Shown piece by piece: positions 45,133-61,174 of a DNA stretch of 64,000 nt (position 1 is its first letter; every line of letters begins with the position of its first letter). This DNA is from Calditrichia bacterium. GTDB taxonomy: Bacteria; Calditrichota; Calditrichia; RBG-13-44-9; J075. The notes under the pieces were generated by a model. The model worked only from the letters and a program-made list of their open reading frames with translations, had not been told where the DNA came from and did no database searches. Both the position numbers and the translations under genes were made by a program. Location of the stretch: the NCBI GenBank assembly GCA_050633245.1, contig JBOEGD010000001.1, positions 192,001 through 256,000 of the forward strand, read 5' to 3'.

Positions 45133-46386
45133 TTAATTCAACTTAAATTTTATCGGTAGCTTTACTCGAGTGCTTACAGCTTTACCGTCTGCTTCGCCGG
45201 GGCTAAATGTACTGGTGCGAACAAATTCAAGTGCTGCAGCATCAAGCTCTGGAACGGATTTTACAACTTTTGCATCCATTACATTACCTTCAGCGTTTAC
45301 CAGAATATCTACGACTACAGTTCCTTCAAGTGCTGCCTTCTTTGCATCTTCCGGATACTTTAGATCCGCAGCCACTGCCAGTTTTGGCTTAACACTCAGG
45401 TTATTGATATCTACAATTATTGCCTCTGAAGCGGTTGCACTGCTTCTTTCCGTACTACAGGAAAATGGAATTGCCAGTAAAAGCACTGCTGCTGCAATAC
45501 CGAAACCAGATAGAATGTGTTTCTTCAATGGAGTAACCTCCTTCTTAAGTTGATAATGAATTCGTTTAGACAGGCCGGATTGGCACTGCGAAAAATAACT
45601 GGCTGCAGTCAGTCTTTTTTTATTTTGGATCAGAGACTCCGCAATATGAATAAGGTTGTTTGCGTAGTCTCGTGGAGGAATGTCCATATTACGTATTGTG
45701 CGATTATCGCAACTTATCTCACGATACAGATTTATTCTGTTGTTCAATAACCACACCATGGGATTAAAGAAGAAAATGATCTGCGAAAAAATCTGCAGCA
45801 CATTTATCCAATGGTCGCCTGCCTGAATATGTTGAAGCTCATGCGTGATAATTGTCCGTTTTACCTGCGTGTTCCAGTTCTTTGACGAAGCAGGGAGCAG
45901 TATTTTGTGCCGGAACAACCCGGTAACAAGTGGACTTTGTTCTTCTGCTGATAGCAAAACGACGGTATTTGCCGGTAGATCGATTGTGTGTGGCAGTAAG
46001 GCCGCATTCTTTAGCTTACTGCGTAGAGTGAGCGTTCGGAAAATAAGTTTGGCTGATAATACAATAACACCGGTAAGCCATAGGCAAAACAAAATTACGT
46101 CAACTGTCCAGATGTTCGCCCCGGCAGAAGATGATGCCAACACTTCTGGCAATTCAAAGCGATTGGCAATGCCGGGTAGGACGCTTTCGACGGGTAGTGC
46201 GATTATTGGAACAAACAGCTTTACCAACGCAATGCCCATTAGAATAATCTGTAATCGCGGGTCATCGTTCTTCCGGGCAAGCCAAACAGAGATCAGTAGC
46301 ACCAACAGGATAAAGAGCGAGCCATTCACATTCATTTGCAGGAAATGTTCCCGCCAAAGCGTTATCAATTCAGGAGTGCTATTCAT
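45133..46386 (-). CDS. BlaR1/M56 metallopeptidase fused to a TonB C-terminal domain
   Basis: SPLVTG, HELQH, FFFNPMVW, REISCD; YPEDAKKAALEGTVVV...LPIKFKL. Confidence 0.88.
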   Translation of the reverse strand: MNSTPELITLWREHFLQMNVNGSLFILLVLLISVWLARKNDDPRLQIILMGIALVKLFVPIIALPVESVLPGIANRFELPEVLASSSAGANIWTVDVILFCLWLTGVIVLSAKLIFRTLTLRSKLKNAALLPHTIDLPANTVVLLSAEEQSPLVTGLFRHKILLPASSKNWNTQVKRTIITHELQHIQAGDHWINVLQIFSQIIFFFNPMVWLLNNRINLYREISCDNRTIRNMDIPPRDYANNLIHIAESLIQNKKRLTAASYFSQCQSGLSKRIHYQLKKEVTPLKKHILSGFGIAAAVLLLAIPFSCSTERSSATASEAIIVDINNLSVKPKLAVAADLKYPEDAKKAALEGTVVVDILVNAEGNVMDAKVVKSVPELDAAALEFVRTSTFSPGEADGKAVSTRVKLPIKFKLN

Positions 46387-46777
46387 TATTGCTCTCCTTC
46401 TTCTGTTTCTGTTCGAGGAGGGCTTTTAGCCTGATTAACTCCTCTTCATTAAGAGAGTCCGAGTCGACTAAAAAGTTTGCCAGATCATTAACAGAACCGC
46501 CAAAAAAACGCTTTGCCATCTGCGTTACAGCACTGCGCAGCGTGGTATCCCGTGCCTCTGAAGGACGATAAAAATTTACCAGGCCCACTTTCTCTTTGTT
46601 GAGATACCCTTTTCCAACAAGGTTGTTCATAACCGTTTGCACGGTTGTATACGCTTTTTGTCCATCGGGATACGCTGATTCGAGAATCTCACGTACCGTC
46701 ACTTGTTTTCGTGCCTGCCAGATGAATTGAAGAATTTCCCATTCCAGTTCTGTTGGCTGTTGTTTGGTGGAATTCAC
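46379..46777 (-). CDS. blaI: BlaI/MecI/CopY family repressor
   Basis: TELEWEILQFIW, AYTTVQTVMNNLVGKGYL, FGGS; directly upstream of the M56 gene. Confidence 0.88.
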   Translation of the reverse strand: MNSTKQQPTELEWEILQFIWQARKQVTVREILESAYPDGQKAYTTVQTVMNNLVGKGYLNKEKVGLVNFYRPSEARDTTLRSAVTQMAKRFFGGSVNDLANFLVDSDSLNEEELIRLKALLEQKQKKESNNE

Positions 46778-46794
46778 ACTCTCTCCTGCGTTTT

Positions 46795-46838
46795 TAGTAG
46801 ATCTACTATAAATATAGTAGGTGCTTGCAAAAAGTCAA
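46795..46838 (-). promoter_or_regulatory. Promoter and palindromic operator of the blaI-blaR1-like operon
   Basis: Minus strand TTGACT-N16-TATATT; palindromes CTACTATA-AA-TATAGTAG (46803-46820) and TAGTAGATCTACTA (46795-46808). Confidence 0.68.
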
Positions 46839-46851: not shown

Positions 46852-46888
46852 AAATAAAAAAGCAGCGTGCCAAAGAGGCACGCTGCTT
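46852..46888 (-). terminator. Rho-independent terminator of the ZU5-like lipoprotein gene
   Basis: AAGCAGCGTGCC-N5-GGCACGCTGCTT stem followed by a U-run on the minus strand. Confidence 0.82.
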
Positions 46889-46913: not shown

Positions 46914-47486
46914 CTATCCGCGGGAGAGAGCGTAGCGAGAGAAGTGGTGAATTGTGAGGATGATCAATTTGTTGGTGACGTCAATGTCATCGGGAATTTG
47001 CTCGATATAGTTACCATTATCATCTATATAGTAAAGCGTGGGTATTTCGATTCCGAGATCAGCATAGTTAAGGTAAACCTTCGCTGCAGGGCTAAACTGG
47101 CAGCCATGTGGGCCAAACTCGAAGAGCAATTCATTGTTCACAGTGTCCAAATCCGCAGTCATTGTGATAACTACATCGTCACCCCAAGGCGTGCTTGGTG
47201 GCGGAGTAATAGCGTTCTTCATCAGCTCGAACACCGTACCATTCGGTAGCGTAAATGATCCACCTCTATAACCTTCTTTATGAAAGCTGTAGTTGTAAGA
47301 AGCGCTTTGCGGGTAGGTTAGCCTTTCATTCGATCCCTTAATTGGCTTCCCGTTAAACTCGGCCGGTTCCTCAACACTGTCCGGTCCGTTGATGCTTACA
47401 ATACTGTCCTGTGTGCAGCTAAGGGCGAAAAAAGAGAATAATACTGCGGTGATGAGTAAGTAGAGTGAACGTTTGGTGCGTGTCAT
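46914..47486 (-). CDS. Lipoprotein with ZU5-like domain ending in HFS motif
   Basis: GGAGG SD; lipobox FALSC; GGSFTLPNGT...VVITM...FEFGPHGCQFSP..VYLNY...IHHFSRYALSRG*. Confidence 0.7.
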   Translation of the reverse strand: MTRTKRSLYLLITAVLFSFFALSCTQDSIVSINGPDSVEEPAEFNGKPIKGSNERLTYPQSASYNYSFHKEGYRGGSFTLPNGTVFELMKNAITPPPSTPWGDDVVITMTADLDTVNNELLFEFGPHGCQFSPAAKVYLNYADLGIEIPTLYYIDDNGNYIEQIPDDIDVTNKLIILTIHHFSRYALSRG

Positions 47487-47552
47487 GGTCAACCTCCGTG
47501 TTGATTAAGTTTTTGTTTACTTCCGTTACATCCTTGTAACTGCTGCTATTAT

Positions 47553-47568
47553 AGCAACTGATATGCCA
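47553..47568 (-). promoter_or_regulatory. Sigma-54 (-24/-12) promoter of the ZU5-like lipoprotein
   Basis: Minus strand TGGCATATCAGTTGCT, close to the TGGCAC-N5-TTGCW consensus. Confidence 0.8.
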
Positions 47569-47585: not shown

Positions 47586-47692
47586 TAAGTCTTTGATTTT
47601 ATTGACTATGAACTCTTTTTACCCTCTCGCTGCAAAGTGGTCCATTTCAACCATTTATTTGCTGACTTCCGCCAACTGGCTGAATTCAACCA
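47586..47692. promoter_or_regulatory. IHF-like site and two candidate enhancer boxes
   Basis: Minus strand AATCAAAGACTTA (47586-47598) fits WATCAA-N4-TTR; TGGTCCATTTCAACCA (47638-47653) and TGGCTGAATTCAACCA (47677-47692). Confidence 0.6.
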
Positions 47693-47843
47693 GGTTTTTA
47701 GGCAAATAATGGTCTATAGCGGCTAACTATTTTACGCAGAAATTAACTCTCGTTTTATCAAGGAGATCCTCTTAGCGTCGACTATTAAAAATAGTTGAAT
47801 GTGCTGTTTATACATAACTTGATACAGAAAGTATATTCCTGCA

Positions 47844-50800
47844 ATGTCTCCTGTAAATACAATTGGCCGCTACCGGATTCGCCGAAAGCTCGGACATGGC
47901 GCAATGGGCCTTGTTTATGAAGCTGAGGATGATGCGCTCGGGCGATCCGTTGCTATTAAAGTTATGCACGAATTTCTTAGTGATGACGAGGTTCAGACTG
48001 CGCGTTTTCTTCGTGAAGCAAAGTCGGCAGCTTTTCTACAGCATCCTAATATAATTACCATATACGAAGTTGGCACCGCCGACAATGTCCACTTTATTGC
48101 AATGGAATATGTAGCGGGGCAGTCCGTGCAGGATCTGCTCAACTCCGGTAAGGTCATTCCTCTCAATCAGACACTGGATGTTGTTTGTCAGGTTCTTGAG
48201 GGACTACAGCTTGCGCATCAAAAAGGAATTTTGCATCGTGATATTAAGCCGGATAATATTCTGCTAACGCAAAGCGGTGTTGCCAAAATAGCAGATTTTG
48301 GCATTGCCAAAATGACGAATGAGCAGGGTTTAACTGCCGATCAGGATATTCTCGGTACCGTGGAGTTCATGGCTCCGGAACAAATGCTGGGTGAGGAATT
48401 GGATGCTCGCAGCGATTTATACTCTGTGGGAATTATGACCTATCAACTTTTAACCGGTCGCGTGCCTTTTCGTGGCGATAGCCCGGTAGAAGTACTCTAC
48501 AAACAGCTTAACGATCAACCAAAGCCACCGTCTTTTTATAACAATACTCTTAGTCGGGCAATCGATATGGTGTTGTTTAAAGCTCTGCAAAAAGACAAGC
48601 AGCAACGCTGGGAAAACGCAAGTGCTTTTGCCAATGCGCTCAGGCGGGCATGTGATGGTGAGGCCGTGGGAGAACTGGAATTGCTCAGCGAGGATGCGCC
48701 GGGAGCTCAGCGCTCCTTGTTTGTCGGACGTGATTCCGAGTTTAATACGCTACTCGGTCTTTTTGCACGCTGCTCGACAGAAGAAGGGCAGGTTGCATTG
48801 ATCTCCGGACAGGCCGGAGTTGGCAAAACAGCCTTGGCTGATTACTTTGTTGAAATGGCTGCTGACGATGGTACTTGGACACTCTCTGCTGCCTGTTTGT
48901 ATCAGGAAGGACTTGATGCCTACCGACCTTTTTTGGACGCGATAAAGGCATTCTTCCGAGAAGAGGTGTTCAGACTTTCTCCCGAACACCGGCAGGCGCT
49001 GTTGGAAATCATACACGAGAAGATTCCTGTGCTCAGCGATTTTCTGGATACCCTCGAAGACGATTCAACCTCCCCGATTGCGCGGACAGAAAATTCTGCA
49101 TCTAAAGCAAATATTCTCGAAGGTATTGATTATCTGTTTAGCCTGTTGGCTACAATTAAGCCGGTTGTTTTTATATTGGATGACTTACAGTGGGCCGACG
49201 AGTCAACTCTGCGTCTTTTTCATTATCTCGCACGAAACGCCGAACACAACAGAATTTTAATCATCGGACTGATGCGTCTTTCTTCACAGGGGGGCGAGAT
49301 TGATGAAGCTGCATATGAGGTTACGAATACGATCTCTCGCCTAAAGCGTGAAATGAATGTGTCTACGATTGAATTGGCTCACCTGAGCGAGTCTGAGAGT
49401 GAACATCTACTGGACTTACTCTATCCATCGAATTTATTTAGTGCGGCCTTTTATCGCGAGATACATAAACAAACTACTGGAAACCCTCGCCTTCTGTTGG
49501 ATGTTATGGAAACGCTAGCCGATAGCGAACAGATTTTTTGCAAAGGTGAATTTTGGCAGGAAAAGTCCGGAAAACTATCAATAACGCTCAGTGTGAATCT
49601 CGAAGACGCGTTCCCGGATCAGCTCCGCAAATTGTCTTCAGAGGAACGTGAACTGCTTGATGTTGCCTCAGTCATCGGCTATCGTTTCGATCTCGGCGTT
49701 CTGGCATCCTTAATGGATATGAAGCGTATTACTCTCTTGCGAATGCTGCGTCGAATGGAACAGGAACTGCATATTTTTAAGAGCAGCGAAGAAGGGATGC
49801 AGTTTGTATATCCGGTTTTTCGAGACATCTTATATAATGAGATTCCCTTCTTGTTGCGACAGGAATATCATCTGCTTATTGCTGAGGAGTATGAAGAAAA
49901 ACCCGCTGAGGTTTTACAGGCCATTCCAGGAGATTTGGCCGGTCATTATTTGGCTGGTGGTAAGGTAGTGAAGGCGCTGCCCCTTCTTTACAAAGCTGCT
50001 GAACGTGCGTTTAATTTGATGGCCTACCGAGAAGCTGCTCACCTTCTTGATCACCTGATTTCATTGACCGAAGAAAAAGAGTTAATCCTTCCGGATGATA
50101 TTCCATCCACACAAATTTATTCCATGCTTGGCGTTTGTTATGAGGAACTCGGGGATCGGCAGCGCAGCCTGTCTATGCTAACGATTTATAAAGAACATGC
50201 TCAGCAGCAGCAGTTGATCGATAAAGAAGCAGATGCTTATCTCAAAATTGGACGTGTGCACGATCTATTAGGGAGCTGGGATGCTGCGTTGGAAAATTAT
50301 GATGCCTGCAGAGAGCTGACTACCCGGCACGAGTTATCGGATGGGTTGGGGGCAGTGCAAAACAATATCGGAGTTGTCTATTTCCAAATGGGTGACTTTG
50401 AGAAGGCGGCTACCTATTTCAAATTGAATACAGCCGACATATCGGGCATTGCTGATAAGGATCGGGCAAATTCTATTGCAGGATTGGGCATCTTAAGCAG
50501 CATTCGGGGGGAATATGAAGACGGGTTGGCTTACTATCGCAGTGCACTGTCTATTTATCAAAAGCTTCAGCTTCGCAAAAATCAAGCTGAGGCGTATCAT
50601 AATATTGGAATGTCCTTTGCCGATGTAAATGAGACTGACAAAGCGCTACAGGCTTATAGCACCTGCCTGAATCTCGTTCGCGATTTTGAAAGTGAACAGC
50701 TTCGCGGACTCACCTTTCTTAACATGAGTAAACTTCACGCCAAATTGTCTAACAATGATGAGGCCCACCCTTTATTGGCCAAAGCACGAAAAATCTTTCA

Positions 50801-51119
50801 GCGCTCTGAAGATCTTTTGAGTATTGGTGAGTGTGAATTGATCTCCGGATTACTTTATGCAAATGTTAAAGACTACAAGTCTGCCTCCGAATGTTTTAAA
50901 GAGAGCGTTCGTATTAATTCGGAGATGAAATTTCCGGAAGGGCTTGCAGAGAGCTATCGTGCGCTCGGAGACCTGTACCTGGCGCAAGATATTGCTATAG
51001 AGGCACTCACATTTTACTCAAAAGCTGCAGAGTTATATGAAGAGATGAATTCATTGTCAAAGTTTAGTGAGCTTTCCGAGTTGGTTGCATCAATAAATGA
51101 TGCGGTTAAAATAACTTAG
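47844..51119 (+). CDS. Ser/Thr protein kinase - STAND/AAA ATPase - TPR protein
   Basis: LGHGAMG, VAIK, HRDIKPDN, DFG, APE; FVGRDSE, GQAGVGKT, LDDLQWAD; C-terminal TPR array; no TM segment. Confidence 0.92.
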   Translation: MSPVNTIGRYRIRRKLGHGAMGLVYEAEDDALGRSVAIKVMHEFLSDDEVQTARFLREAKSAAFLQHPNIITIYEVGTADNVHFIAMEYVAGQSVQDLLNSGKVIPLNQTLDVVCQVLEGLQLAHQKGILHRDIKPDNILLTQSGVAKIADFGIAKMTNEQGLTADQDILGTVEFMAPEQMLGEELDARSDLYSVGIMTYQLLTGRVPFRGDSPVEVLYKQLNDQPKPPSFYNNTLSRAIDMVLFKALQKDKQQRWENASAFANALRRACDGEAVGELELLSEDAPGAQRSLFVGRDSEFNTLLGLFARCSTEEGQVALISGQAGVGKTALADYFVEMAADDGTWTLSAACLYQEGLDAYRPFLDAIKAFFREEVFRLSPEHRQALLEIIHEKIPVLSDFLDTLEDDSTSPIARTENSASKANILEGIDYLFSLLATIKPVVFILDDLQWADESTLRLFHYLARNAEHNRILIIGLMRLSSQGGEIDEAAYEVTNTISRLKREMNVSTIELAHLSESESEHLLDLLYPSNLFSAAFYREIHKQTTGNPRLLLDVMETLADSEQIFCKGEFWQEKSGKLSITLSVNLEDAFPDQLRKLSSEERELLDVASVIGYRFDLGVLASLMDMKRITLLRMLRRMEQELHIFKSSEEGMQFVYPVFRDILYNEIPFLLRQEYHLLIAEEYEEKPAEVLQAIPGDLAGHYLAGGKVVKALPLLYKAAERAFNLMAYREAAHLLDHLISLTEEKELILPDDIPSTQIYSMLGVCYEELGDRQRSLSMLTIYKEHAQQQQLIDKEADAYLKIGRVHDLLGSWDAALENYDACRELTTRHELSDGLGAVQNNIGVVYFQMGDFEKAATYFKLNTADISGIADKDRANSIAGLGILSSIRGEYEDGLAYYRSALSIYQKLQLRKNQAEAYHNIGMSFADVNETDKALQAYSTCLNLVRDFESEQLRGLTFLNMSKLHAKLSNNDEAHPLLAKARKIFQRSEDLLSIGECELISGLLYANVKDYKSASECFKESVRINSEMKFPEGLAESYRALGDLYLAQDIAIEALTFYSKAAELYEEMNSLSKFSELSELVASINDAVKIT

Positions 51120-51154
51120 ATCCAGAACTGTTTTGAAATTTGATCGGTGATAGT

Positions 51155-52141
51155 ATGTCTGAAACAATACAAGTTGATAAAGACCTGCGATTGGAAAACC
51201 AGCGTTTGCTCGCCGAGTTGGAAGATGCTTACAAAAGTATGGAGGCAATGTTAGCCCAACATTCGCATGAGAACAAAATCACCTACCAGGAACTTCTGCT
51301 TAAAGTAAATGCCTTGGAAAATCTGAACAAGGCGTTGACGGATAAAGAAAATAAGCTAATCAACTTGCAAAAAATGTCTTCGGTCGGATACTTTGTGGCC
51401 AACATTATTCACGAATTGAGTACGCCTCTAACCATCATCTCCGGTAGTGCCGAGCTCGCGCGTATGAAGGGCTGTACGCCTGCTGTGCACGATTATTTAA
51501 AAGTGATCTCTGAAAGTGTTGTGAGGCTCTACGATTTACTCGACCGTTTTCGTGGTATCTACGGCAGTGAAACAGAAACATTTAAGGTGTTTGATCTTGG
51601 CGAGCATCTGCGTTACACCATGGAAACCGTTTCGATTATAATGCCGTCTCATATAAATCTGGAATTGACAATTCCTGATAGGGCAATTCCGGTTGAGGGG
51701 GATTCTGATCAGCTTATGCAAATCTACCTTAATATTTGTAAAAATGCCTTTGATGAGCTGCTTAACTGCGGCAACAGCTTGAGTGTTAAGGTCATAACTC
51801 TGCCCGCGAAGCAGTTACATGAAGAATTCAACGATACATATGCCTTTAGCCAGACTAGTACAGACTGGAGAAACATTGTTTCGCATCATGAGCAATTTGC
51901 TGCTGTGCGTTTTGGAGACAATGGTGGTGGTATTGCGCAAGAGCGTCTTCACAGAGTATTTGAAGCCTATCATACGTCGAAGCCTGAAGGAGAAGGCACC
52001 GGGTTAGGGCTTTCGATTTCTTCAGATATTATAACCAGACATAATGGCAATCTTGGCGTAGCCTCGGAAGAGGGAGTGGGGACTGAGTTTGTGGTATTAG
52101 TCCCGCTTGCCAGTCAATCTGATGGGAGAGAAAAGACATGA
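51155..52141 (+). CDS. Soluble histidine kinase without recognisable sensor domain
   Basis: Coiled-coil N-terminus; HELSTPL, QIYLNICKNA, DNGGGI, GTGLGL. Confidence 0.88.
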   Translation: MSETIQVDKDLRLENQRLLAELEDAYKSMEAMLAQHSHENKITYQELLLKVNALENLNKALTDKENKLINLQKMSSVGYFVANIIHELSTPLTIISGSAELARMKGCTPAVHDYLKVISESVVRLYDLLDRFRGIYGSETETFKVFDLGEHLRYTMETVSIIMPSHINLELTIPDRAIPVEGDSDQLMQIYLNICKNAFDELLNCGNSLSVKVITLPAKQLHEEFNDTYAFSQTSTDWRNIVSHHEQFAAVRFGDNGGGIAQERLHRVFEAYHTSKPEGEGTGLGLSISSDIITRHNGNLGVASEEGVGTEFVVLVPLASQSDGREKT

Positions 52142-52422
52142 CAATTACATGTAAGAAGTGCAGCAATAGCATGGAGCAGGCAGATAAATTCTGTGGGGCC
52201 TGTGGTGCCCCGAAAGAAAAGAATGTCGCCCCGCTGTTGGGAACCAAGGTCGATATGCAGCTCAGCGATATTCGCTACAATCTGGCGCAGGTTTATGTAA
52301 AAAAAGGCGACTTTCAAAAAGCACTGAACGTTTTCGAAAAGCTGCTGGAAGAAAATCCTGACAACTCGGAAATCCAGCTTCAGATAAATAGTCTAAAGAG
52401 TATGCTCGAAGTGAGCTCATAA
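52138..52422 (+). CDS. Zinc-ribbon + TPR small protein
   Basis: CKKC...FCGACG; YNLAQVYVKKGDFQKALNVFEKLLEENPDN. Confidence 0.8.
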   Translation: MTITCKKCSNSMEQADKFCGACGAPKEKNVAPLLGTKVDMQLSDIRYNLAQVYVKKGDFQKALNVFEKLLEENPDNSEIQLQINSLKSMLEVSS

Positions 52423-52441: not shown

Positions 52442-52831
52442 ATGCAAAAACATAGATGTGAAGAATGTAGTCACCTTAATAAAGAATCTAATCAGTTCTG
52501 CAGCAATTGCGGCGTTTCGCTAAATGATGAGCTAAAATATGGTCCACGATTGGTAATGATCTACGGAGACAATAACGAGGTGATTTTTCCTTTACGGGAA
52601 GACTATGTATCTATCGGAAGAGATAGTGAAAATCACATTGTTTTGGGCGACGAAAAAATCTCAAAAAATCATGCTGCAATCGTAAAAACGGACGACTTTT
52701 TTGCTATTAAAGATTTGGATAGCCGCAACGGTGTCTACGTGAACGGAACGAAAGTTGAAACGTTGCAAAAAATCTCCGGCGAAAGCCTGATTAAGCTCGG
52801 CTTTACGTTTCTTCGATTTAAGGAGAATTGA
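52442..52831 (+). CDS. Zinc-ribbon + FHA domain protein
   Basis: CEEC...FCSNCG; IGRD, ISKNHA, DLDSRNGVYVNG. Confidence 0.88.
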   Translation: MQKHRCEECSHLNKESNQFCSNCGVSLNDELKYGPRLVMIYGDNNEVIFPLREDYVSIGRDSENHIVLGDEKISKNHAAIVKTDDFFAIKDLDSRNGVYVNGTKVETLQKISGESLIKLGFTFLRFKEN

Positions 52832-52876: not shown

Positions 52877-54517
52877 ATGAAATGTAACGGATTCTATAAA
52901 ACTATTGTTCTACTGACTTTTTTCTTCTGCTTTGCCTGCCAACAAAATGAAGAAACCAACCACGATGGAACCGCTTCACAACCTACACCCGGCGGCACCC
53001 TGATTGTTGGTATTCCGCAGGACATAGACACCTTCAATCCGCTCTTTAGCGAATCGATGGTTGCCAGCGAGATTACCCATTTATTGCTTCCCGGGCTTGC
53101 TGACCTCGATGCCAAGTCTCGTTTTGTGCCACAAACTTCTTCCTCCTGGAAATACTCCGATGGCGGCAAAAAGCTAACATATTTCCTGCACAAAAACGTA
53201 CGCTGGACCGATGGGACTCCCCTTACTGCCTCCGATGTGGTTTTTACATATGAACTATTAAAAGATGAGCGCGTTGGTAGTCCGAAACGCCAGTGGGTAG
53301 AGCTGATAGAAAAAGTTGAGGCCATTGACTCGTTTCAGGTGATGTTTACTTTTGCCCAGCCTTACCCGCTGAGTATCTTCGATACTGCTGGTGAGATACT
53401 CCCCAGGCATTACCTGATAAATGCTGAACGCACTCAGCTGAACTCTCATGCTTTTGGCAGAGAGCCGCTCTCATTTGGTCCGTATTTTCTGAAGCGCTGG
53501 AAGACCAGGCAGTTTATCGAACTCGCTGCAAATGACAACTTCTTTCGGGCTTCGCCATTTTTAAAAAGCCTCTTTTTTAAAGTGATTCCGGACGAGAACA
53601 ATCTGCTTATCCAGCTGCAAACCGGTGAAATTGATATGGCGATTGATGTGCCTGTTGATAAGGTTAAAGAAACGGTTTTAGCCAATCCCAATTTGAATGT
53701 CTACCCGCTATCTGGCCGTCTCTACTATTATCTCGGATACAATGAGGCACAGAAAAAGTTTGCTTCAACTCGTGTTCGCAGGGCTCTTACAATGGCCGTA
53801 AACCGCCAAATGATGATCGATGCCTTACTGGACGGCTATGGTCGTATTTGTCTCGGTCCCATTCCTCCAATGTTGTCGTGGGCATATAACGACACCATTC
53901 AGGAGATTCCGTTTAATCAGCAGCAGGCTAAAAAGCTGCTTGCCGAGGAAGGGTGGATCGATAGCGACGGAGACGGATGGTTAGATAAGGATGGCGATAC
54001 GTTTAATTTTGTTCTGAATACCGATGCCGGTAATGGTCGAAAGAAGGATATAGCCGTTGTTATTCAGGATCAGCTTAGGCAAATAGGGGTTAAAGTAGAT
54101 ATTAACCTTTTGGAATGGGGCAGCTTGATTAATCGTTTGGGAAAGCGCGATTTTGAAGCGTATATCGGTGGCTGGAATACCCCTGTCTATATTGATCCGA
54201 CGCCGATTTTTCACTCTTCCTCTGTCGATCTGTTTAATCATGGTGGCTACGCCAATTCCCGCGTAGATGAATTAATCGAGCAGGGGAGAGAGGAACTGGA
54301 TCAGAATAAAGCGGGTGAAATTTGGAAAGAGCTGCAGGCTATTATTTATAGCGAACAGCACTATAATTTCCTGTTTTGGGTCGATCGTCTGGTTCTTATC
54401 GATAAGCGCTTTAAAAACGTTACACCTATTCCGCTTAGCGCACTCTACAATATCGAAAATTGGTATGACGCCTCCCAGTCTCTGAAACATTTGACAGCCG
54501 CCGCCGATGGTGACTGA
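52877..54517 (+). CDS. oppA: Family 5 ABC substrate-binding lipoprotein (peptide/Opp-Dpp type)
   Basis: Lipobox CFAC; WTDGTPLTASDVVFTY, RVRRALTMAVNR, AKKLLAEEGW. Confidence 0.88.
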   Translation: MKCNGFYKTIVLLTFFFCFACQQNEETNHDGTASQPTPGGTLIVGIPQDIDTFNPLFSESMVASEITHLLLPGLADLDAKSRFVPQTSSSWKYSDGGKKLTYFLHKNVRWTDGTPLTASDVVFTYELLKDERVGSPKRQWVELIEKVEAIDSFQVMFTFAQPYPLSIFDTAGEILPRHYLINAERTQLNSHAFGREPLSFGPYFLKRWKTRQFIELAANDNFFRASPFLKSLFFKVIPDENNLLIQLQTGEIDMAIDVPVDKVKETVLANPNLNVYPLSGRLYYYLGYNEAQKKFASTRVRRALTMAVNRQMMIDALLDGYGRICLGPIPPMLSWAYNDTIQEIPFNQQQAKKLLAEEGWIDSDGDGWLDKDGDTFNFVLNTDAGNGRKKDIAVVIQDQLRQIGVKVDINLLEWGSLINRLGKRDFEAYIGGWNTPVYIDPTPIFHSSSVDLFNHGGYANSRVDELIEQGREELDQNKAGEIWKELQAIIYSEQHYNFLFWVDRLVLIDKRFKNVTPIPLSALYNIENWYDASQSLKHLTAAADGD

Positions 54518-55352
54518 TTTCGAAGACATGGATAACAATTTCAGAGTGGGTTCCAGTGGGGCTCAGCTGAACTCAAACTTGCTGTCTGTTCATCAACTTA
54601 CGCTCGGGATTGCAGGAAGAAAATCCCGAATAACGCTGTTGGAAGATATTTCTTTTTCTCTTAAAGAGGGGGAATGCCTTGGGGTTATCGGCGAGTCTGG
54701 TGCGGGAAAAAGTATGTTGGCACATGTGCTATTAGGTGTTCAGCCGGCAGATGCGCAAGTTGCCTCAGGTTTCATCTGCTTTGCCAACAAACTACTTAAT
54801 CCTGAAAACCCTAAAGACTGGCAATCGATTCGTGGCAATGAAATATCTATGGTTTTTCAAAATGCAGCGGAAGCATTAAATCCGCTGATTACTGTTGGAA
54901 AACAGGTTCAAAGGGTAATTGCAACTCACGGCTCGATGTCTGATTCCATGGCGCACAAACGGGTTTTATACCTATTTGAAGAGATGAATCTCAATAATCC
55001 GGAAATGGTTTTTAACTGTTTCCCGCATCAGCTAAGCGGTGGCATGAATCAACGTGTTATGTTGGCTATGGCACTTTGCGGTTCCCCACGCCTTGTTATT
55101 GCTGATGAACCAACTTCTGCGCTCGACAATGAATCCCGCGATAGAGTGCTTTCTCTGCTTGCGGCCTTTAAAAAAAAGCTTGGTTTCGCGCTTATCTTTA
55201 TTACACACAACATCGAGCTCGCGGCTGGTATTGCAGACTCGCTTGTGGTAATGAAAGACGGACGAATTGTTGAACAAGGTGTTTCCGACGTTCTGCTGAC
55301 AGCCCCAACTCATCACTACACCATGCAGATATTAGACGGGCAGCTTCCATGA
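54507..55352 (+). CDS. oppD: Peptide ABC transporter ATP-binding protein
   Basis: GESGAGKS, ISMVFQ, PHQLSGGMNQR, IADEPT, PTHHYT. Confidence 0.88.
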   Translation: MVTDFEDMDNNFRVGSSGAQLNSNLLSVHQLTLGIAGRKSRITLLEDISFSLKEGECLGVIGESGAGKSMLAHVLLGVQPADAQVASGFICFANKLLNPENPKDWQSIRGNEISMVFQNAAEALNPLITVGKQVQRVIATHGSMSDSMAHKRVLYLFEEMNLNNPEMVFNCFPHQLSGGMNQRVMLAMALCGSPRLVIADEPTSALDNESRDRVLSLLAAFKKKLGFALIFITHNIELAAGIADSLVVMKDGRIVEQGVSDVLLTAPTHHYTMQILDGQLP

Positions 55353-56134
55353 TAGCAGATAATGTGTCTCCGGTATTGTGCATTCAAAATTTGTGCAAAA
55401 GTTATCAGCAAAGTCATCGGATGCTGTCTGCATCGGATCGTTTTTACGCCATCAGAGATGTTAGCCTGGAGTTATTTAAGGGCGAGTTTGTTGCTCTTTC
55501 CGGGCCTTCCGGAAGTGGAAAGTCGACGTTGGGTCGCTGCATTGTATCGCAAGTGCAACCAGACTCCGGCGCCGTTATCTATTGCGGTGAGGATCTCTCA
55601 CACTTAACCGGAAAACAACTTGCCCATCGACGCAAATGTATTCAGTATATCTTTCAAAATGGCGCAGGAGCGCTTAATCCACGACAATCAATTGCCGGTT
55701 GCTTGAAGGAGGCTATTGCTGCAAATACGTCTTCTGCTGAGCATGCAACAGTTGCCGGACTGCTTGAGATGGTTGGATTAACTTCATCCTTAGAAAGTCG
55801 TTATCCGCATCAGCTTAGCGGAGGTCAGCAGCAGCGAGTTTGTATTGCGCGTGCATTGTCCGTTCACCCGCGTATAATAATTGCCGATGAACCGACCTCA
55901 GCGCTCGATGCTCCGCGGCGCAGGCAAATTGTTCAGTTGTTTTTGACATTGCAGCAGCGCCTTAATTTAACGATTCTCTGGATTACGCACGATCTTGCAG
56001 CCGTAGAACAACATGCTGATCGCATATTGCTTATGGATTGTGGCAGATTGAAGTCAGAACATTCATCGTGTAATGTCAATTCTGCAGTACTTCATCCTGG
56101 ACCGGAAACTATACCGACAGGTGAAGACCAGTGA
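55349..56134 (+). CDS. oppF: Peptide ABC transporter ATP-binding protein
   Basis: GPSGSGKS, YPHQLSGGQQQRVCIARAL, IADEPT. Confidence 0.86.
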   Translation: MIADNVSPVLCIQNLCKSYQQSHRMLSASDRFYAIRDVSLELFKGEFVALSGPSGSGKSTLGRCIVSQVQPDSGAVIYCGEDLSHLTGKQLAHRRKCIQYIFQNGAGALNPRQSIAGCLKEAIAANTSSAEHATVAGLLEMVGLTSSLESRYPHQLSGGQQQRVCIARALSVHPRIIIADEPTSALDAPRRRQIVQLFLTLQQRLNLTILWITHDLAAVEQHADRILLMDCGRLKSEHSSCNVNSAVLHPGPETIPTGEDQ

Positions 56135-57105
56135 TTCGCTACATCTTATACCGTTCTGGTTATTCTCTACTGCTTGTTTGGGGCATAGTCACCTTTACTT
56201 TCCTTCTGCTAAACGCAGTGCCGGGAGATCCGTCTACAATTTATTTACGACCGGATATCGATGCAGAAACCCTTTATTACCTGCGAAAGCATATGGGACT
56301 GGATCTGCCTATTTGGCAACGCTATTGGAATTGGCTTTTCGCGGCATCAAAAGGAATTCTGGGCATTTCATTTACGCATCACCGGCCGGTTCTCGATCTG
56401 CTTGCTGAAGCTTTGCCCAATACGCTGAGACTAACTATAGTTGTTTTTTTTCTGCAGCTGTTTGGAGGAATTGGTCTTGCCATCGTGATGGCCCTGATTC
56501 GTCGGCCGGTTATTCTAAAAGGCATAGAGTCTACTTTGGCCATTTGCTATTCTCTCCCCGGTTTTGTAATTGCATTATTTCTGATTTATGTGTTCTCGTA
56601 TCAGCTCAATTGGTTGCCTTCAGGTCAGATGCAAAGCATGTTGCCAACCGAAGGGCGTGGATATTTAGGCGATTTGTTTCGGCATACTCTTTTACCGGCG
56701 TTGGCGTTTGCCATTCCGCTTGGTGCGTTTACAGCAAGACTCACCTATGGCAACCTGTGCGAAGTGCTATCAAAACCCTATATTCGAACGGCTCAGGCTT
56801 ATGGCATTTCCCGCACACGCATACTCTTTTCCGATGCCCTGCGAAATGCCCTGCTTCCTTTAATTACAATGTCCGGACTATTCTTTCCGGTTTTGCTGGG
56901 CGGTTCGGTTATTATAGAAAATGTTTTTGCATGGCCGGGTATGGGAACAATTGCTGTTCAGGCAGTGCATGCCTATGACTATCCGGTAATAATAGCAGTC
57001 TCAATTATCTCTGCCATATCAATTGTTATTGGCAATCTGCTTGCGGATATCCTTTACGTAGTATGCGATCCGCGCATAAACCTTCACAATCAGGTTCAGG
57101 TATGA
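56131..57105 (+). CDS. oppB: Peptide ABC transporter permease
   Basis: PGDP, GLDLP, YIRTAQAYG, LRNALLP, IENVFAWPGMG, DPRI. Confidence 0.9.
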   Translation: MIRYILYRSGYSLLLVWGIVTFTFLLLNAVPGDPSTIYLRPDIDAETLYYLRKHMGLDLPIWQRYWNWLFAASKGILGISFTHHRPVLDLLAEALPNTLRLTIVVFFLQLFGGIGLAIVMALIRRPVILKGIESTLAICYSLPGFVIALFLIYVFSYQLNWLPSGQMQSMLPTEGRGYLGDLFRHTLLPALAFAIPLGAFTARLTYGNLCEVLSKPYIRTAQAYGISRTRILFSDALRNALLPLITMSGLFFPVLLGGSVIIENVFAWPGMGTIAVQAVHAYDYPVIIAVSIISAISIVIGNLLADILYVVCDPRINLHNQVQV

Positions 57106-57956
57106 GTTACTTGTATCTCAGCAATCTGGTTCATTCAGCCCGGGCGAAACGAGAGTCTGTTGCGAGTAATCCGATCCTTTGGCTTGCCGGTGCAGCTCTT
57201 TTTACCTTATTGCTGATCAGCTTTTCCAGCACAATGATGCTTGCCATTGATCCATTTCAACACGGAGATTTGTTGATGGATCGCTATAAGCCACCCTCTT
57301 ATGAGCATCTTTTTGGAACCGACAAGTTTGGTCGGGACGTTTTAGCAAGAACTCTCTATGGCGCACGCATATCATTGCTAATAGCTATTGGCGTGGTTTT
57401 GGTCGCTTTTTTTATTGGCACGTTGTATGGCCTTATTTCGGGCTATGCCGGGGGCTGGCTAGATCAAGGGATGATGTATGTGCTGGATTTTTTGCTGGCA
57501 TTTCCAGCAATCTTCTTACTCATGTTCTTACTTGCAATGTTTCAAATGAATCATTGGTGGCTTATTCCCATTCTTGGATTAACAGGCTGGATGGAAACAG
57601 CAAGATTGGTGCGAGCTGAGGTGCTCACCGTAAAGGAACGCGATTTCATGCATGCGGCAATTGGTTTAGGTTTATCGCGCTGGCGGATTATCAGTAGACA
57701 TATTTTGCCAAACGTGCTCACATCTGTTCTGATTACAATTCCGTTTAAGGTTGCAGACGTCATTCTTCTGGAATCGGCACTCAGCTTTTTGGGGCTCGGC
57801 GTCCAACCTCCAATCCCAAGTTGGGGGAATTTGATAAATGACGGCCGAAGTGTCTTGTTGAGCGCGTGGTGGATTTCTACAGCACCTGCATTGTTCATAT
57901 TATTCACTACCCTTATCTTTAATGTGATTGGAGATCGTCTGCGGAAACAGCTATGA
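57102..57956 (+). CDS. oppC: Peptide ABC transporter permease
   Basis: HLFGTDKFGRDVLARTLYGARISL, RHILPN, LSFLGLG, PSWG; ATG overlaps the oppB stop. Confidence 0.9.
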   Translation: MSYLYLSNLVHSARAKRESVASNPILWLAGAALFTLLLISFSSTMMLAIDPFQHGDLLMDRYKPPSYEHLFGTDKFGRDVLARTLYGARISLLIAIGVVLVAFFIGTLYGLISGYAGGWLDQGMMYVLDFLLAFPAIFLLMFLLAMFQMNHWWLIPILGLTGWMETARLVRAEVLTVKERDFMHAAIGLGLSRWRIISRHILPNVLTSVLITIPFKVADVILLESALSFLGLGVQPPIPSWGNLINDGRSVLLSAWWISTAPALFILFTTLIFNVIGDRLRKQL

Positions 57957-58051: not shown

Positions 58052-59074
58052 TTGAAAAAAACGAGTCGAAATACCTTTGATCACATGATTGTTGGCGAAT
58101 CGCGTGCCATAAGAGACGTTATTTCTAAAGCGAAACAGCTTGCTGTACGTGGAACGGTTACTACACTTATTACCGGTGAAAGCGGTACGGGTAAGGAACT
58201 TTTTGCCCGTCTTATTCACGCTGCCGGCCCCCACGCGCATCAACCGTTTGTAGACATTAACTGTGGCGCTATTCCGGAGTCTTTGCTGGAGTCTGAACTC
58301 TTTGGTTATGAAAAAGGCGCGTTTACCGGGGCGGAAAACCGCAAGCCGGGTCTCTTTGAACTCGCGAATAAGGGCACTATTTTTCTAGACGAAATTGGTA
58401 ATACGAATCTGACTTTTCAAATAAAGTTGCTTAAGGCCGTTGAGCAAAAGCGCTTTCGTCGAATTGGGGGAATTGATGAGGTTCAGATTACCACAAGAAT
58501 TATTGCTGCGACGAATGTTGATTTACAGAAAGCTGTCAGTTCCGGAAAGTTTCGTGAAGATCTTTACTATCGTTTGAATGTCTGTGAGGTAAAGCTCCCG
58601 CCTCTGCGTGAACGGAGTGACGATTCCGCTTTAATCGCTTCGCATCTTCTTGAGCACTTTCGCGTACAATACGATCGACAGAACCTGGAGTTTAGTGAAG
58701 ATGCCCTTGAAGCTATCCGCGATTATCATTGGCCGGGCAATGTGCGACAATTGAAAAACAGCATAGAAAGAACGGTCCTTCAGAGCAATGATAGTGTTAT
58801 TACGGCTGAGGAGCTGGCCTTGCAAGGGAAGCGCAAAGATCGATCGCCTAAACAACCAGCTGTTGATACGAAGACATCTCGCCAAGACCCTCCCTGGACA
58901 ATACCTGATGAAGGGATTTCACTGGAAGATGTTGAAAGGAAGCTGATTTTAAGTGCGCTGAATAAGTGCTCCGGGAACCTCAGCAAGGCTGCACGCTTAT
59001 TGCATATTAAACGTGGAAAACTCCGCTATCGCCTCGATAAACTTTGTATCGATTATTCTAACGAGTTGGCCTGA
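58052..59074 (+). CDS. Sigma-54 enhancer-binding protein lacking an N-terminal regulatory domain
   Basis: GESGTGKE, ESELFGYEKGAFTGA, FLDEI, FREDLYYRL, WPGNVRQL, Fis-type HTH; the AAA+ domain starts about 10 residues after the start. Confidence 0.9.
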   Translation: MKKTSRNTFDHMIVGESRAIRDVISKAKQLAVRGTVTTLITGESGTGKELFARLIHAAGPHAHQPFVDINCGAIPESLLESELFGYEKGAFTGAENRKPGLFELANKGTIFLDEIGNTNLTFQIKLLKAVEQKRFRRIGGIDEVQITTRIIAATNVDLQKAVSSGKFREDLYYRLNVCEVKLPPLRERSDDSALIASHLLEHFRVQYDRQNLEFSEDALEAIRDYHWPGNVRQLKNSIERTVLQSNDSVITAEELALQGKRKDRSPKQPAVDTKTSRQDPPWTIPDEGISLEDVERKLILSALNKCSGNLSKAARLLHIKRGKLRYRLDKLCIDYSNELA

Positions 59075-59230
59075 TTATCATTCTCCATCCAGGCCTGACA
59101 ATTTTTTTGAACCCTTCTTTCTACATATGTATTTTTGTCTTTCGTTCTGTATCGATCCTGAATTTCTTGCATCTAATAATTGATATCCCTACGTATTTAT
59201 TGCATATTACGGTTAAACCGGAAAACACTT

Positions 59231-61174
59231 ATGGCATATGTAAATCCACGTATTACTCAACTCGGCGCAACGCTCGAATCGTATACCGATCCGTCCAACG
59301 AACGGGTAGATACGCTGAACGACCTTGCCTGGGAACTTTGGACAACCCAGCCTGAGAGAGCCACTGAGTTGACTCACGAAGCATCCGCCCTGGCGGAGAA
59401 GCTGGACTATCCGCGTGGAAAGGCTTATGCCAAGGTCAACCGGGGAATGCTGGAGTGGCGTACCAATATTGCAGGTTCTCTTGAGCTGTTTGCGGAAGCA
59501 TTGGTTTGGTTCGAGGAACATGATGAACCGGTTGGCGCTGCAAACGTTCTGAACTTTATTGCCATTATTTATTGGGGCATCGGTGACCTGCAGCGCGGAC
59601 TCGATCATAGTTTAAAATCGCTTAAGCTGCATAAGACGGTTGATGATCCTGAAGGAAGTGGATGGACACATCAGACCCTGAGTGGGTTTCATCTTGATTT
59701 GAAGCAGTATGAACAGGCGAAAGAATATGCCACCAAGGCATACGAGATTTTTAAAGGATGTGAAAATAAGTTGGGCGAAGCTCGTGCTCTGAATGGGATG
59801 GGTAATGCTCTGCTTCATTTGGGCGATTGTAAAAAGGCGCTCGAATATCTGGAAGAAAGTTTAAGGCAATCCCGCGAGATGGAGCATGAGTTCTCTATTT
59901 CCAGAGCCCTTAACGATATCGGTTTGGTTTATCAGAAGCGGAGTGATTATGCCGGCGCGCTGCCGTTTCATCAGGAAAGCTTGCGGTTACGCGAAGAGCT
60001 GGATTATCCGACCGGACAAACAACTTCGCTACTCGATCTGGCCAATGCCTATGTTAATGTCGGCGAAACCGAAAAGGGAATTGCGGCAATTGAGCGATCA
60101 ATGAGTCTGGCAAAGGAAATTAATGCCAAGCCCAAGATCGCAAGAGGCCATATGGCACTTGCGATGATTTACGAAAACCTCGGTAGTTTTGAGCAGGCAT
60201 TGGAGCATTTCAAGCAACACTTCGAGCTTGAGCAATCCATCTTCAGTGAAGATGCTGAACGCAAGATGAAAAACATGCAGGCCGTTTTTGAGCGAGAAGC
60301 GACTCAAAAAGAAGCCGAGATCTTTCGCTTGAAGAATGTTGAGTTAAAGGAAAAAAATGAACAGCTTCAGCATACGCTTGAGGAGCTTAATTCTACGCAA
60401 GCCCAGCTGCTTCAGGCTGGTAAAATGATGGCTCTGGGTAATCTGGTCGCTGGTATTGCTCATGAAATAAATACGCCGATCGGCACTATCAAAAGCGGAG
60501 CCGACCTGGCTTCCCGCGTAGCGGGCAAACTTCTGAAATCTCTTGATGGCGATTCGGATGAGGCTGCTGTAAACAAAGAGCTGAATAAAACGCTTCCCCT
60601 GCTGCAAAGTAGTACCGAAAATACTTTTCTTGCCGTTGAGCGCATTATGAAAATAGTGAATGGACTAAAAAACTTCGCTCGCCTTGATGAAGCAGAGTTT
60701 CAGCTGGCTGATATTACCGAAGGACTAGAAAGTACGCTTCTGCTTATTGCACATGAAATTCCTGCGACAGTTAAGGTAGATTTACAATACGCTGATTTAC
60801 CGAAAATCTATTGTTTCCCTACCGAGTTGAATCAGGTTTTCATGAACATCATTCTAAATGCACTCCAAGCAATGCGCAATGGTGGAACGCTTACCATTCG
60901 CACTGAACAATCTGCTGAACATATACTCATTTCCATCTGTGATACCGGTGTTGGCATTGCTGAAGAGAACTTGAAATCTCTTTTTGAGCCCGGCTTTTCC
61001 TCCGGTGCCAGCCGTATGAAGATGAAAACCGGTCTTTACACCAGTTATGGCATTGTCGCCCGGCACCGAGGCGATATTCAGGTTGAGAGTACTATCGGAC
61101 GTGGGACAAAGTTTTCCATCACGATTGCTACGGATCTGCAAAATTATATGTCGCCGCTCTCCAGTGCATCCTAG
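59231..61174 (+). CDS. TPR-containing soluble histidine kinase
   Basis: N-terminal TPR array; AHEINTP, LNQVFMNIILNA, DTGVGI; atypical G2 region. Confidence 0.87.
   Translation: MAYVNPRITQLGATLESYTDPSNERVDTLNDLAWELWTTQPERATELTHEASALAEKLDYPRGKAYAKVNRGMLEWRTNIAGSLELFAEALVWFEEHDEPVGAANVLNFIAIIYWGIGDLQRGLDHSLKSLKLHKTVDDPEGSGWTHQTLSGFHLDLKQYEQAKEYATKAYEIFKGCENKLGEARALNGMGNALLHLGDCKKALEYLEESLRQSREMEHEFSISRALNDIGLVYQKRSDYAGALPFHQESLRLREELDYPTGQTTSLLDLANAYVNVGETEKGIAAIERSMSLAKEINAKPKIARGHMALAMIYENLGSFEQALEHFKQHFELEQSIFSEDAERKMKNMQAVFEREATQKEAEIFRLKNVELKEKNEQLQHTLEELNSTQAQLLQAGKMMALGNLVAGIAHEINTPIGTIKSGADLASRVAGKLLKSLDGDSDEAAVNKELNKTLPLLQSSTENTFLAVERIMKIVNGLKNFARLDEAEFQLADITEGLESTLLLIAHEIPATVKVDLQYADLPKIYCFPTELNQVFMNIILNALQAMRNGGTLTIRTEQSAEHILISICDTGVGIAEENLKSLFEPGFSSGASRMKMKTGLYTSYGIVARHRGDIQVESTIGRGTKFSITIATDLQNYMSPLSSAS

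Follow-up and report, generated by a model that had tools for sequence, protein, structure and literature searches.

A Calditrichota lipoprotein that ends one strand past a predicted ZU5-type autoproteolysis site may be the precursor of an imported, sensed peptide

In a 64,000-nucleotide stretch of DNA from a Calditrichia bacterium (contig JBOEGD010000001.1, positions 192,001 to 256,000; hereafter the window), a gene on the minus strand (46914..47486) encodes a 190-amino-acid lipoprotein, ZU5L. Its only folded part is predicted to be an autoproteolytic β-sandwich of the ZU5 / GAIN-B ('MAIN') type, so that an exported, lipid-anchored protein would stop right after the last strand of its sandwich. 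Since the lipid anchor sits at the N-terminus and this strand closes the chain, a cut at the predicted site can set free only a peptide of 8-9 residues. We propose, with a probability of roughly 0.4, that ZU5L is a protease-independent, self-cleaving precursor of a peptide that is imported and sensed by proteins with tetratricopeptide repeats (TPR). What prediction and comparison provide for this proposal is a fold, a motif at the equivalent of known cut sites, the invariance of that motif, a fixed tail length behind it, selection on the tail, a gene cluster, the co-occurrence of its members across genomes, and promoter-like elements.

The ZU5L open reading frame (ORF) runs from an ATG at 47486 to a TAG stop at 46914-46916. 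A GGAGG sequence lies 6 nt 5' of this ATG and directly abuts an alternative TTG at 47492; since its spacing favors the ATG, the latter is the likely start. The N-terminus, MTRTKRSLYLLITAVLFSFFALSC, carries a hydrophobic h-region followed by Cys24, and the signal peptide with lipobox (residues 1-24, ...FFALS-C24; 47415..47486) reads MTRTKRSLYLLITAVLFSFFALS-C24, with a helix predicted for residues 6-22. In an alignment of 73 homologues, conservation of this lipobox-type cysteine column reaches at least 90%, and a strict lipobox regular expression matches only 98 of 213 family proteins. Judged by inspection and conservation of the h-region and the lipobox cysteine, ZU5L is a predicted bacterial lipoprotein. 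A variable linker (about residues 25-55; 47322..47414), marked by gap-rich, variable columns and by predicted local distance difference test (pLDDT) values of 50-56 for the blocks covering residues 21-50, leads into the β-sandwich (residues 56-190; 46917..47321), which AlphaFold2, VIA-align and hhalign support. Near its end lie H181-F182-S183 (46938..46946), the predicted autoproteolysis site with a cut between F182 and S183, and the tail S183-G190 (SRYALSRG; 46917..46940), which is the last β-strand and the candidate released peptide. An ORF scan finds ZU5L as a single copy in its own 6.35-Mb genome. An earlier note on this DNA had described a stand-alone lipoprotein with a lipobox, ZU5-like patterns and HHFSRYALSRG as its last residues, next to OppA-like and TPR genes, and each of these elements is borne out: the protein ends 8 residues after the Phe with no domain downstream, the patterns GG..LPNG, F.FGPHG.QF.P and LYYI sit in conserved columns, and the neighboring genes are real. 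Its further proposals, namely a ZU5 fold, an HF/S at the place where such domains are cut, and conservation of HFS among homologues, also hold, as the comparisons that follow show.

The structure discussed here is a prediction, an AlphaFold2 model built on the 73-sequence alignment. It depicts an all-β domain with pLDDT 92-98 for the blocks covering residues 61-190 and, according to DSSP on the model, a last hairpin composed of a strand (174-181), a turn with H181-F182-S183, and a final strand (184-188). Foldseek against the PDB placed ZU5 domains first (ankyrin, ZO-1, NLRP1 and UNC5b), together with MYDGF and GAIN, at marginal significance (best E 1.3e-3). In VIA-align runs over 48,161 representative chains, followed by a second look, the ankyrin ZU5 domains aligned with the model at Z 9.6-11.7 (root-mean-square deviation (rmsd) 2.4-3.1, 112-119 residues). 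The first run gave Z 11.3, 10.9 and 10.5 for ankyrin ZU5 domains (rmsd 2.5-3.1, 114-118 residues), and individual entries include the ankyrin-B ZU5 4d8o (Z 11.7, rmsd 2.4, 119 aligned) and 6m3q_E (Z 11.3). Behind them follow CD97 GAIN (9.1), UNC5b (8.5), ZO-1 (7.5-8.1), CARD8 (6.1) and NLRP1 (5.7-6.7), with GAIN chains overall at 5.8-9.1. The top ZU5 and GAIN matches stand about 3-4 Z units above the best glycosidase accessory β-sandwich; below about Z 7.6 such sandwiches mingle with the remaining GAIN, ZO-1, CARD8 and NLRP1 rows. No Nup98 chain appears among the 50 best matches listed in either VIA-align list.

Sequence searches with the ZU5L protein gave no match in Pfam and NCBIfam, and PDB sequence searches with the protein and its profile returned only chance leucine-rich-repeat-like matches. 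The Pfam ZU5 model (PF00791) matched 0 of the 73 members at E ≤ 1, and neither the window protein nor anything else in the window's own genome. In a single hhalign comparison, the ZU5L profile aligned with a Pfam-positive ZU5 lipoprotein from the phylum over 142 columns (probability 91%, E 1e-6), with the motifs GG, GAL, FGP.G..F..P and HFS.YA in register. This protein (L052:82-1824, minus strand, genome G027) is the only Pfam-positive ZU5 protein in 86 genomes (25.2 bits versus a cut-off of 21). It is a 580-amino-acid lipoprotein with its ZU5 domain straight after the lipobox and with about 415 residues behind HFSAYAA; it resembles the conventional layout, in which the cut frees a large part, and is possibly an evolutionary relative of the tail-only family. 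Zhang et al. (2012) unite ZU5, GPS and the Nup98 domain in one superfamily, and also note that bacteria have ZU5 autopeptidases in their polymorphic toxins and among surface proteins (PMC3482391). By its modeled fold and by profile-level homology, ZU5L belongs to this ZU5 superfamily (the ZU5 / GPS-GAIN / Nup98 APD grouping).

Upon close examination of the structural alignments, we noticed that chains ending at their own cut stop opposite model residue 182. This is true of the NLRP1 ZU5 fragment 1095-1212 and of the GAIN N-terminal fragments of GPR126, GPR110, GPR97 and latrophilin-3, so that the H-x-S/T triplet of ZU5L lies in the turn before the last strand at the position equivalent to known cut sites. 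In the NLRP1 study's own description, ZU5 spans Phe1079-Phe1212 and S1213 is the catalytic first residue of UPA (10.1101/2020.08.14.246132). According to D'Osualdo et al., the motif of PIDD and Nup98 is HFS; its Phe is buried, and the mechanism involves an N-O acyl shift (PMC3210808). The same motif works in bacteria: according to the preprint on MAIN domains, Edman sequencing placed the cleavage of Bacillus subtilis YfkN between F and S of its HFS, a S-to-A mutation blocked cleavage and S-to-T restored it (10.64898/2026.05.12.724683). Because fold, motif and motif position together fit a self-cleaving domain, we infer from the model that ZU5L would cleave itself at F182-S183.

The family around ZU5L is built to a constant plan. 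A word-index search returned 78 homologues, and a full HMMER scan of 1.84 billion cluster representatives returned 230 relatives at E ≤ 0.001, nearly all of 150-250 amino acids (as seen in the best 150 of the 230) and annotated in all sources solely as 'hypothetical protein'. Mean column identity in the 73-sequence alignment is 32%, with P96, F124, F131, H181, F182, S183, R184 and Y185 invariant in all 73 aligned sequences. HFS occurs within 40 residues of the C-terminus in 204 of 213 family proteins, more than expected by chance, and is extended to HFSRY in 201 of these 204; among the nine proteins without it, five are C-terminally cut fragments and four are variants (QFS, QVS, RFS and HTS). 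Comparing the C-terminal peptides as the earlier note had suggested, we found the tail, counted from the Ser, to be 8 or 9 residues long in 195 of the 204 (9 in 119, 8 in 76; the remaining nine have 10-20). The consensus is S-R-Y-A-[LVI]-[AGS]-x-x-(x), realized in 109 distinct tails.

Longer relatives of about 320-430 residues exist, and in these, too, the chain ends 8-9 residues after the Phe. Among seven longer paralogues scanned, three forms of about 425 residues contain DUF6923/tachylectin-like (propeller-type) repeats, as does protein P0230, and in the longer forms this region sits between the lipobox and the ZU5-like domain, never after it. The paralogues of about 425 residues (L031:862-2151, L032:2970-4244, L022:10122-11402, and proteins P0230 and P0231) keep an 8-residue tail. 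A single-sequence search for longer relatives found no fused form with a downstream domain, and a profile search returned two proteins, of 423 and 429 residues, both with just 8 residues behind the Phe; as that profile search scored only 8000 candidates, support for the absence of fused forms is weak. ZU5L genes also form tandem arrays of up to eight. The comparative data come from one phylum, Calditrichota: a loci search of genome contigs confirmed two loci, both in metagenome-assembled genomes of Calditrichia; one family member is labeled candidate division KSB1, and ESM Atlas look-alikes from Gemmatimonadota and others serve as leads only.

The tails themselves appear to be under selection. 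In the eight-gene array of genome G030, the tails fall into two classes, SRYAIGTEY (three genes) and SRY[A/V]MAYGW (five genes). The 13 gene pairs with an identical variable tail share only 26-42% identity (median 29%) over the 125 residues before HFS and are no closer to one another than pairs with different tails (median 32%). The tail codons differ synonymously wherever possible, at I, G, T, E and Y in one class and at A, Y and G in the other. Such synonymous change within identical tails points to purifying selection on the peptide and not to recent gene conversion. Genome G054 repeats the pattern with LSKD, shared by four genes that are 24-50% identical, and between genomes the variable tail positions differ freely. 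Identity of tails within a genome, read here from sequence, is expected if the tails fit a shared partner; it is not predicted for a purely structural strand. In many clusters, one gene of each of two tail classes accompanies two STAND-TPR genes.

The genes next to ZU5L encode a candidate signaling and import system, all on the plus strand of the window. Divergent from ZU5L lies a PknK-like gene of 1091 codons (47844..51119) for a Ser/Thr kinase followed by an AAA_16 (STAND) module and TPR (Pkinase 1.3e-53, AAA_16 1.5e-25, TPR_12 4.7e-28). Then come a soluble histidine kinase of 333 residues (HisKA plus HATPase_c by Pfam; 51140..52141), a zinc-ribbon and TPR protein of 94 residues (52138..52422), and a zinc-ribbon and FHA protein of 129 residues (52442..52831), FHA being a reader of phospho-Thr. 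Orthologues of the histidine kinase occupy the same position in loci L026/L036, L028, L037, L038, L045 and L050, and the two small proteins have counterparts in L035 and L036, that with FHA also in L038. Import is represented by a lipoprotein of the Opp/Dpp/Nik-type solute-binding protein (SBP) family SBP_bac_5 (546 residues, N-terminal FFCFAC, Pfam 1.4e-76; 52877..54517), followed by two ATPases and two permeases of an ATP-binding cassette (ABC) system of the same type (Pfam/NCBIfam; 54507..57956). The best NCBIfam match of the SBP is Opp4A (1.8e-68), with NikA next and all matches below cut-off. A sigma-54 activator of 340 residues without receiver (58052..59074; Sigma54_activat 1.9e-66, HTH_8) closes the series. 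A TPR-histidine kinase of 664 residues (59180..61174) is of uncertain membership, with no clear orthologue at this position in other loci.

The TPR, STAND, kinase, histidine kinase, FHA and activator proteins have no signal peptide and no convincing transmembrane segment. The sensors of the cluster are all cytoplasmic by this measure, and the ABC importer is therefore its sole membrane-crossing part. The 340-residue activator consists of AAA+ and HTH_8 only, without a receiver, GAF, PAS or V4R sensor, so something else must control it; perhaps the adjacent kinase and FHA proteins do. In an ORF scan of the window's own genome, the STAND of the kinase-STAND type gave one match plus a weak one at 7e-12, SBP_bac_5 gave two matches (the second at 5e-19), and the permease of the cluster type gave one.

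This arrangement recurs. We compared 27 loci with ZU5L genes, drawn from 19 genomes of the phylum, and in addition extension loci, using longest-ORF calls, Pfam, and phmmer with the window proteins as queries; ORF calls and domain labels are those of this analysis. The recurring order is 1-8 ZU5L genes, an optional TPR protein of about 417 residues, an AAA_16-TPR protein (about 800-850), the Pkinase-AAA_16-TPR protein (about 1100), the HisKA/HATPase kinase (about 330), zinc-ribbon-TPR (about 92), zinc-ribbon-FHA (about 130), the SBP_bac_5 lipoprotein, two ABC ATPases with two permeases, and finally the receiver-less sigma-54 activator of about 340 residues. In the window, ZU5L is inverted and the AAA_16-TPR gene is absent. 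The whole chain is present in the window and in genomes G004, G017 and G073, and in G030 the same chain occurs with no FHA match. At the end of the cluster in four other genomes (L035, L036, L037 and L038) stand orthologues of the same short activator (3.9e-122 to 2.6e-105). A STAND-TPR gene is found in 14 of the 27 loci and a stand-alone cytoplasmic TPR protein adjoins ZU5L in six more, so that TPR proteins without signal peptide or transmembrane segment adjoin it in 20 of 27, with the SBP_bac_5 ABC system in the cluster; four of the seven loci with neither protein end at a contig edge shortly after ZU5L. A variant cluster in G063 (L029), G065 (L047) and, in part, G064 (L051) combines, in this order, an SBP_bac_5/ABC system, whose SBP is 35% identical to the window's, with a receiver-type sigma-54 activator, ZU5L, a TPR protein of about 415 residues and, behind it, a GT28-like glycosyltransferase; it has no STAND kinase, and its ZU5L tails are basic (SRYAIRKFQ / SRYAIKKFR).

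ZU5L occurs in 19 of 86 genomes of the phylum. Orthologues of the kinase-STAND protein (at least 34% identity, including contig-cut fragments in G054 and G064) are found in 16 of the 86, orthologues of the SBP (at least 46% identity) in the same 16, each of which also carries ZU5L. Among the 67 genomes that lack ZU5L, neither protein occurs at ortholog level; four of them have STAND paralogues of 29-30% identity and three have SBP homologues of 29-37%. The 16 genomes span four families of the phylum, and in every one of these some members have none of the three components. A Fisher test on the co-occurrence gives 1e-14, a value that is overstated because the genomes are kin and the genes linked. 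As read from these genome sequences, the pattern shows that kinase-STAND, SBP and ZU5L are gained, kept or lost as a unit.

Regulation may tie ZU5L to the same cluster. On its own strand, 66 nt 5' of the ATG, lies a sigma-54-type promoter-like element, TGGCATATCAGTTGCT (47553..47568), of the form TGGCAT-N5-TTGCT (GG-N10-GC). This is one of nine matches on both strands of the whole window and alone constitutes modest evidence. Scanning for GG-N10-GC with at least 9 of 11 positions of the sigma-54 consensus, we found such elements 5' of 13 of 51 ZU5L genes, compared with 2.2% of 4000 random 340-nt segments of the same loci (binomial p 7e-11; array genes are not independent, and two genes have almost no upstream sequence). 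Most of the elements lie 40-160 nt before the region coding for the signal peptide. A sigma-54 activator gene closes the main cluster, and one lies immediately before ZU5L in the variant clusters. Some 110 nt beyond the window's element, on its upstream side, is a palindrome, CTGGTTGAATTCAGCCAG (47676-47693), and GTTGAA/TTCAAC half-sites recur at 47646-47656 and 47789-47799; judging by their sequence, the palindrome and half-sites (47646-47800) may be binding sites for the activator.

If these pieces work together, S183 would, after export and folding, attack the F182-S183 bond with H181 acting as base, and an N-O acyl shift would produce an ester that is then hydrolyzed. The last strand (SRYALSRG here, 8-9 residues across the family) would at that point be held non-covalently until a trigger frees it; unfolding or degradation of the sandwich and strand displacement are candidate triggers. 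Shear force cannot act across the ZU5L cut. The Opp-like SBP_bac_5 ABC importer of the cluster would take the peptide up, and the TPR sensor domains of the neighboring STAND NTPase(s) and of the kinase-STAND-TPR protein would read it in the cytoplasm. Output would pass through the FHA protein, the histidine kinase and the receiver-less activator to sigma-54 promoters, including that of ZU5L, and so create an autoinducing loop. Cleavage, release, import, TPR binding and feedback are all steps that we infer. Taken whole, the picture of a diderm phylum with a peptide autoinducer circuit independent of any processing protease, in which the strand is cut, imported, read by the TPR of STAND NTPases and a kinase, and fed back through sigma-54, is tentative and on balance doubtful.

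Several observations weigh against a released, sensed peptide. By analogy with its relatives, strand release is not the default for a ZU5/GAIN fold: the strand after the motif is described as crucial for the stability of the UNC5b fold (PMC3210808), the cleaved fragments of YfkN are reported to co-purify and run as one species (10.64898/2026.05.12.724683), and the ZU5L tail is modeled firmly within the sandwich (pLDDT 92 for the last block). The first five tail residues (SRYA plus L/V/I) are nearly invariant, which leaves just 3-4 positions for specificity. The SBP scores do not separate peptide from nickel or opine binders, and 38 of the 51 ZU5L genes lack a sigma-54-like element in our scan. 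Synteny and co-occurrence, besides their overstated statistic, are equally expected if the lipoprotein is a regulated output of the cluster. The earlier note had placed the octapeptide in the size range that Opp systems handle and had proposed a test for covariation with the neighboring OppA/TPR genes. Synteny, phyletic co-occurrence and purifying selection on the tail favor such an Opp/TPR link; a strict pairing of tail classes with STAND genes does not emerge, and we rejected a one-to-one match as a rule, as several clusters have one tail and two STANDs.

The same structural points are what the main rival explanation, itself doubtful in our judgment, has in its favor. It holds that ZU5L cleaves itself and keeps its tail for life, as in the MAIN domain of YfkN or a resting GAIN domain, and that the lipoprotein is a sigma-54-controlled output, for example a surface or periplasmic binding protein, while importer and TPR sensors serve another ligand. 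The earlier note had itself cautioned that such a strand often remains in the fold. Ligand binding is suggested by the DUF6923/tachylectin-like repeats of the paralogues of about 425 residues, tandem arrays of up to eight ZU5L genes resemble diversifying surface-protein families, and sigma-54 promoters suit an output as well as a precursor. However, a tail that never leaves would not account for an invariant catalytic triplet with nothing behind the strand, and it leaves unexplained both the identical variable tails of paralogues of about 29% identity under synonymous change and an Opp-like importer restricted to ZU5L genomes.

A role for the groove in place of the tail seems distinctly improbable to us. 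Here the emptied groove would bind a foreign strand by β-augmentation and ZU5L would be an extracytoplasmic capture or sensor module, possibly feeding the peptide importer. ZO-1 provides the precedent, since its last-strand slot can be filled by a separate peptide: the ZO-1 ZU5 alone (2kxr) aligns with model residues 57-182, and together with the GRINL1A peptide (2kxs) it aligns with 54-190, the partner peptide filling the slot of the tail. Unlike ZU5L, ZO-1 lacks the strand genetically and has neither HFS nor cleavage. Strand mobility has a parallel in NLRP1, whose strand, once cleaved, is described as able to come out of the fold and bind DPP9 in extended form (10.1101/2020.08.14.246132). 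Yet no candidate partner strand was identified, and the strict conservation of tails inside each genome suggests that selection acts on the tail and not on the groove. We rate slightly lower still the idea that ZU5L undergoes no autoproteolysis and that HFSRY merely builds the final β-turn and the hydrophobic core, the domain being a non-catalytic, ZU5-like binding module of the kind found in ankyrin or UNC5b. Its best structural matches are indeed the non-cleaving ankyrin ZU5 domains, the motif Phe is described as a buried core residue in Nup98 and CARD8, and the four variant members have lost H or F. Against this, 204 of 213 proteins retain H, F and S alike despite the low mean column identity, an identical HFS has been shown by experiment to be cut in bacterial MAIN domains, and the non-cleaving UNC5b is reported to have Leu at the position of the Phe (PMC3210808).

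Downstream of ZU5L, an intrinsic terminator sits just 3' of the stop on the minus strand (46860..46888; 12-bp stem with 8 GC pairs, followed by a T-run), so that ZU5L does not share a transcript with the BlaI-like and BlaR1-M56/TonB_C genes beyond it. We rejected this pair as a partner, given the intervening terminator and BlaI/BlaR matches in the window only among 30 loci; it is not kept beside ZU5L genes elsewhere. The BlaI-like repressor gene (46379-46777) overlaps the gene for a BlaR1-type M56 peptidase (45133-46386), both on the minus strand within 45133-46838, and the product of the latter ends in a TonB_C domain in place of a penicillin-binding sensor. A -35/-10-like promoter (46811-46838) precedes the BlaI-like gene, with overlapping palindromes (46791-46820) resembling a BlaI/MecI-type operator. 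At 43560-44267 the window encodes a cyclophilin-type peptidyl-prolyl isomerase with a lipobox-like N-terminus (...FFSCGY) and a short coiled-coil segment, which by its sequence is probably an exported lipoprotein.

Among known systems, ZU5L shares with the MAIN domain of YfkN an exported β-sandwich of GAIN-B-like fold and HFS (HX[S/T]) in the β-turn before the last strand. MAIN proteins, as the preprint describes them, are large (mean 158 kDa) and arranged as signal peptide, ectodomains, MAIN and a C-terminal wall or S-layer anchor, so that the ectodomain can be freed; virtually all of 15,000 keep that order, and Brogan & Rudner state that the MAIN C-terminal fragment has been linked to no signaling (10.64898/2026.05.12.724683). 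By contrast, the anchor of ZU5L is an N-terminal lipid and nothing lies past the strand, which sets it outside the MAIN architecture. The eukaryotic ZU5/FIIND domains (PIDD1, NLRP1, CARD8 and the non-cleaving ankyrin and UNC5b) have the same fold (Z 5.7-11.7) and the equivalent turn as cut site; PIDD and Nup98 have the HFS motif in common with ZU5L, and NLRP1 the functional link to a STAND NTPase. These domains reside in the cytosol and are followed by a large UPA-CARD or death domain, whereas ZU5L is exported, terminal and encoded apart from the STAND proteins. In the GAIN domain of adhesion G-protein-coupled receptors (GPCRs), which shares the HX(S/T) cut before the last strand, the Stachel strand itself is the signal. 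It stays tethered to a seven-transmembrane (7TM) receptor and acts in cis; the ZU5L strand has a free C-terminus, no membrane receptor, and candidate receptors in the cytoplasm.

In the RRNPPA quorum sensing of Firmicutes, the C-terminal oligopeptide of an exported precursor is taken up by Opp-type import and bound by a cytoplasmic TPR receptor, with precursor and receptor genes adjacent. In that system separate proteases process small pro-peptides, and the receptors are TPR-helix-turn-helix or TPR-phosphatase proteins. The logic of such a circuit would match the ZU5L cluster, the likeness being one of gene content and layout only. ZU5L comes from a diderm phylum and differs as a folded, 190-residue lipoprotein predicted to cut itself, not a small pro-peptide, and in that its candidate TPR domains belong to STAND NTPases and to a Ser/Thr kinase. 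Fold, motif and bacterial occurrence are already known. In the literature we found no account of a tail-only, N-terminally anchored family or of its circuit, and the supplementary tables of the MAIN preprint might list such proteins. New, as far as our searches reach, are this tail-only design itself and the way it is consistently paired with TPR-STAND sensors in the cytoplasm, with an importer of the Opp-like kind and with sigma-54 regulation.

Autoproteolysis in ZU5, GAIN and MAIN domains is understood as separating two large parts, with described cuts between ZU5 and UPA-CARD, ectodomain and 7TM, or ectodomain and wall anchor. In ZU5L the second part is the strand alone, and the logic of releasing a domain or an ectodomain therefore cannot apply. 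Selection on the tail and its ties to a peptide-type importer, to cytoplasmic TPR-STAND proteins and to sigma-54 suggest instead that the strand is the signal. If so, ZU5L would represent a new route to signaling peptides and would extend peptide signaling through cytoplasmic receptors beyond Firmicutes. It would be a free-peptide counterpart of the 'tethered agonist' of GAIN domains and a bacterial, split version of the ZU5-STAND pairing of NLRP1; were release to require destruction of the sandwich, it could act as a protease or damage tripwire. It would also offer a simple bacterial system for learning how the strand of a ZU5/GAIN domain is released after cleavage, a question shared with adhesion GPCRs and NLRP1.

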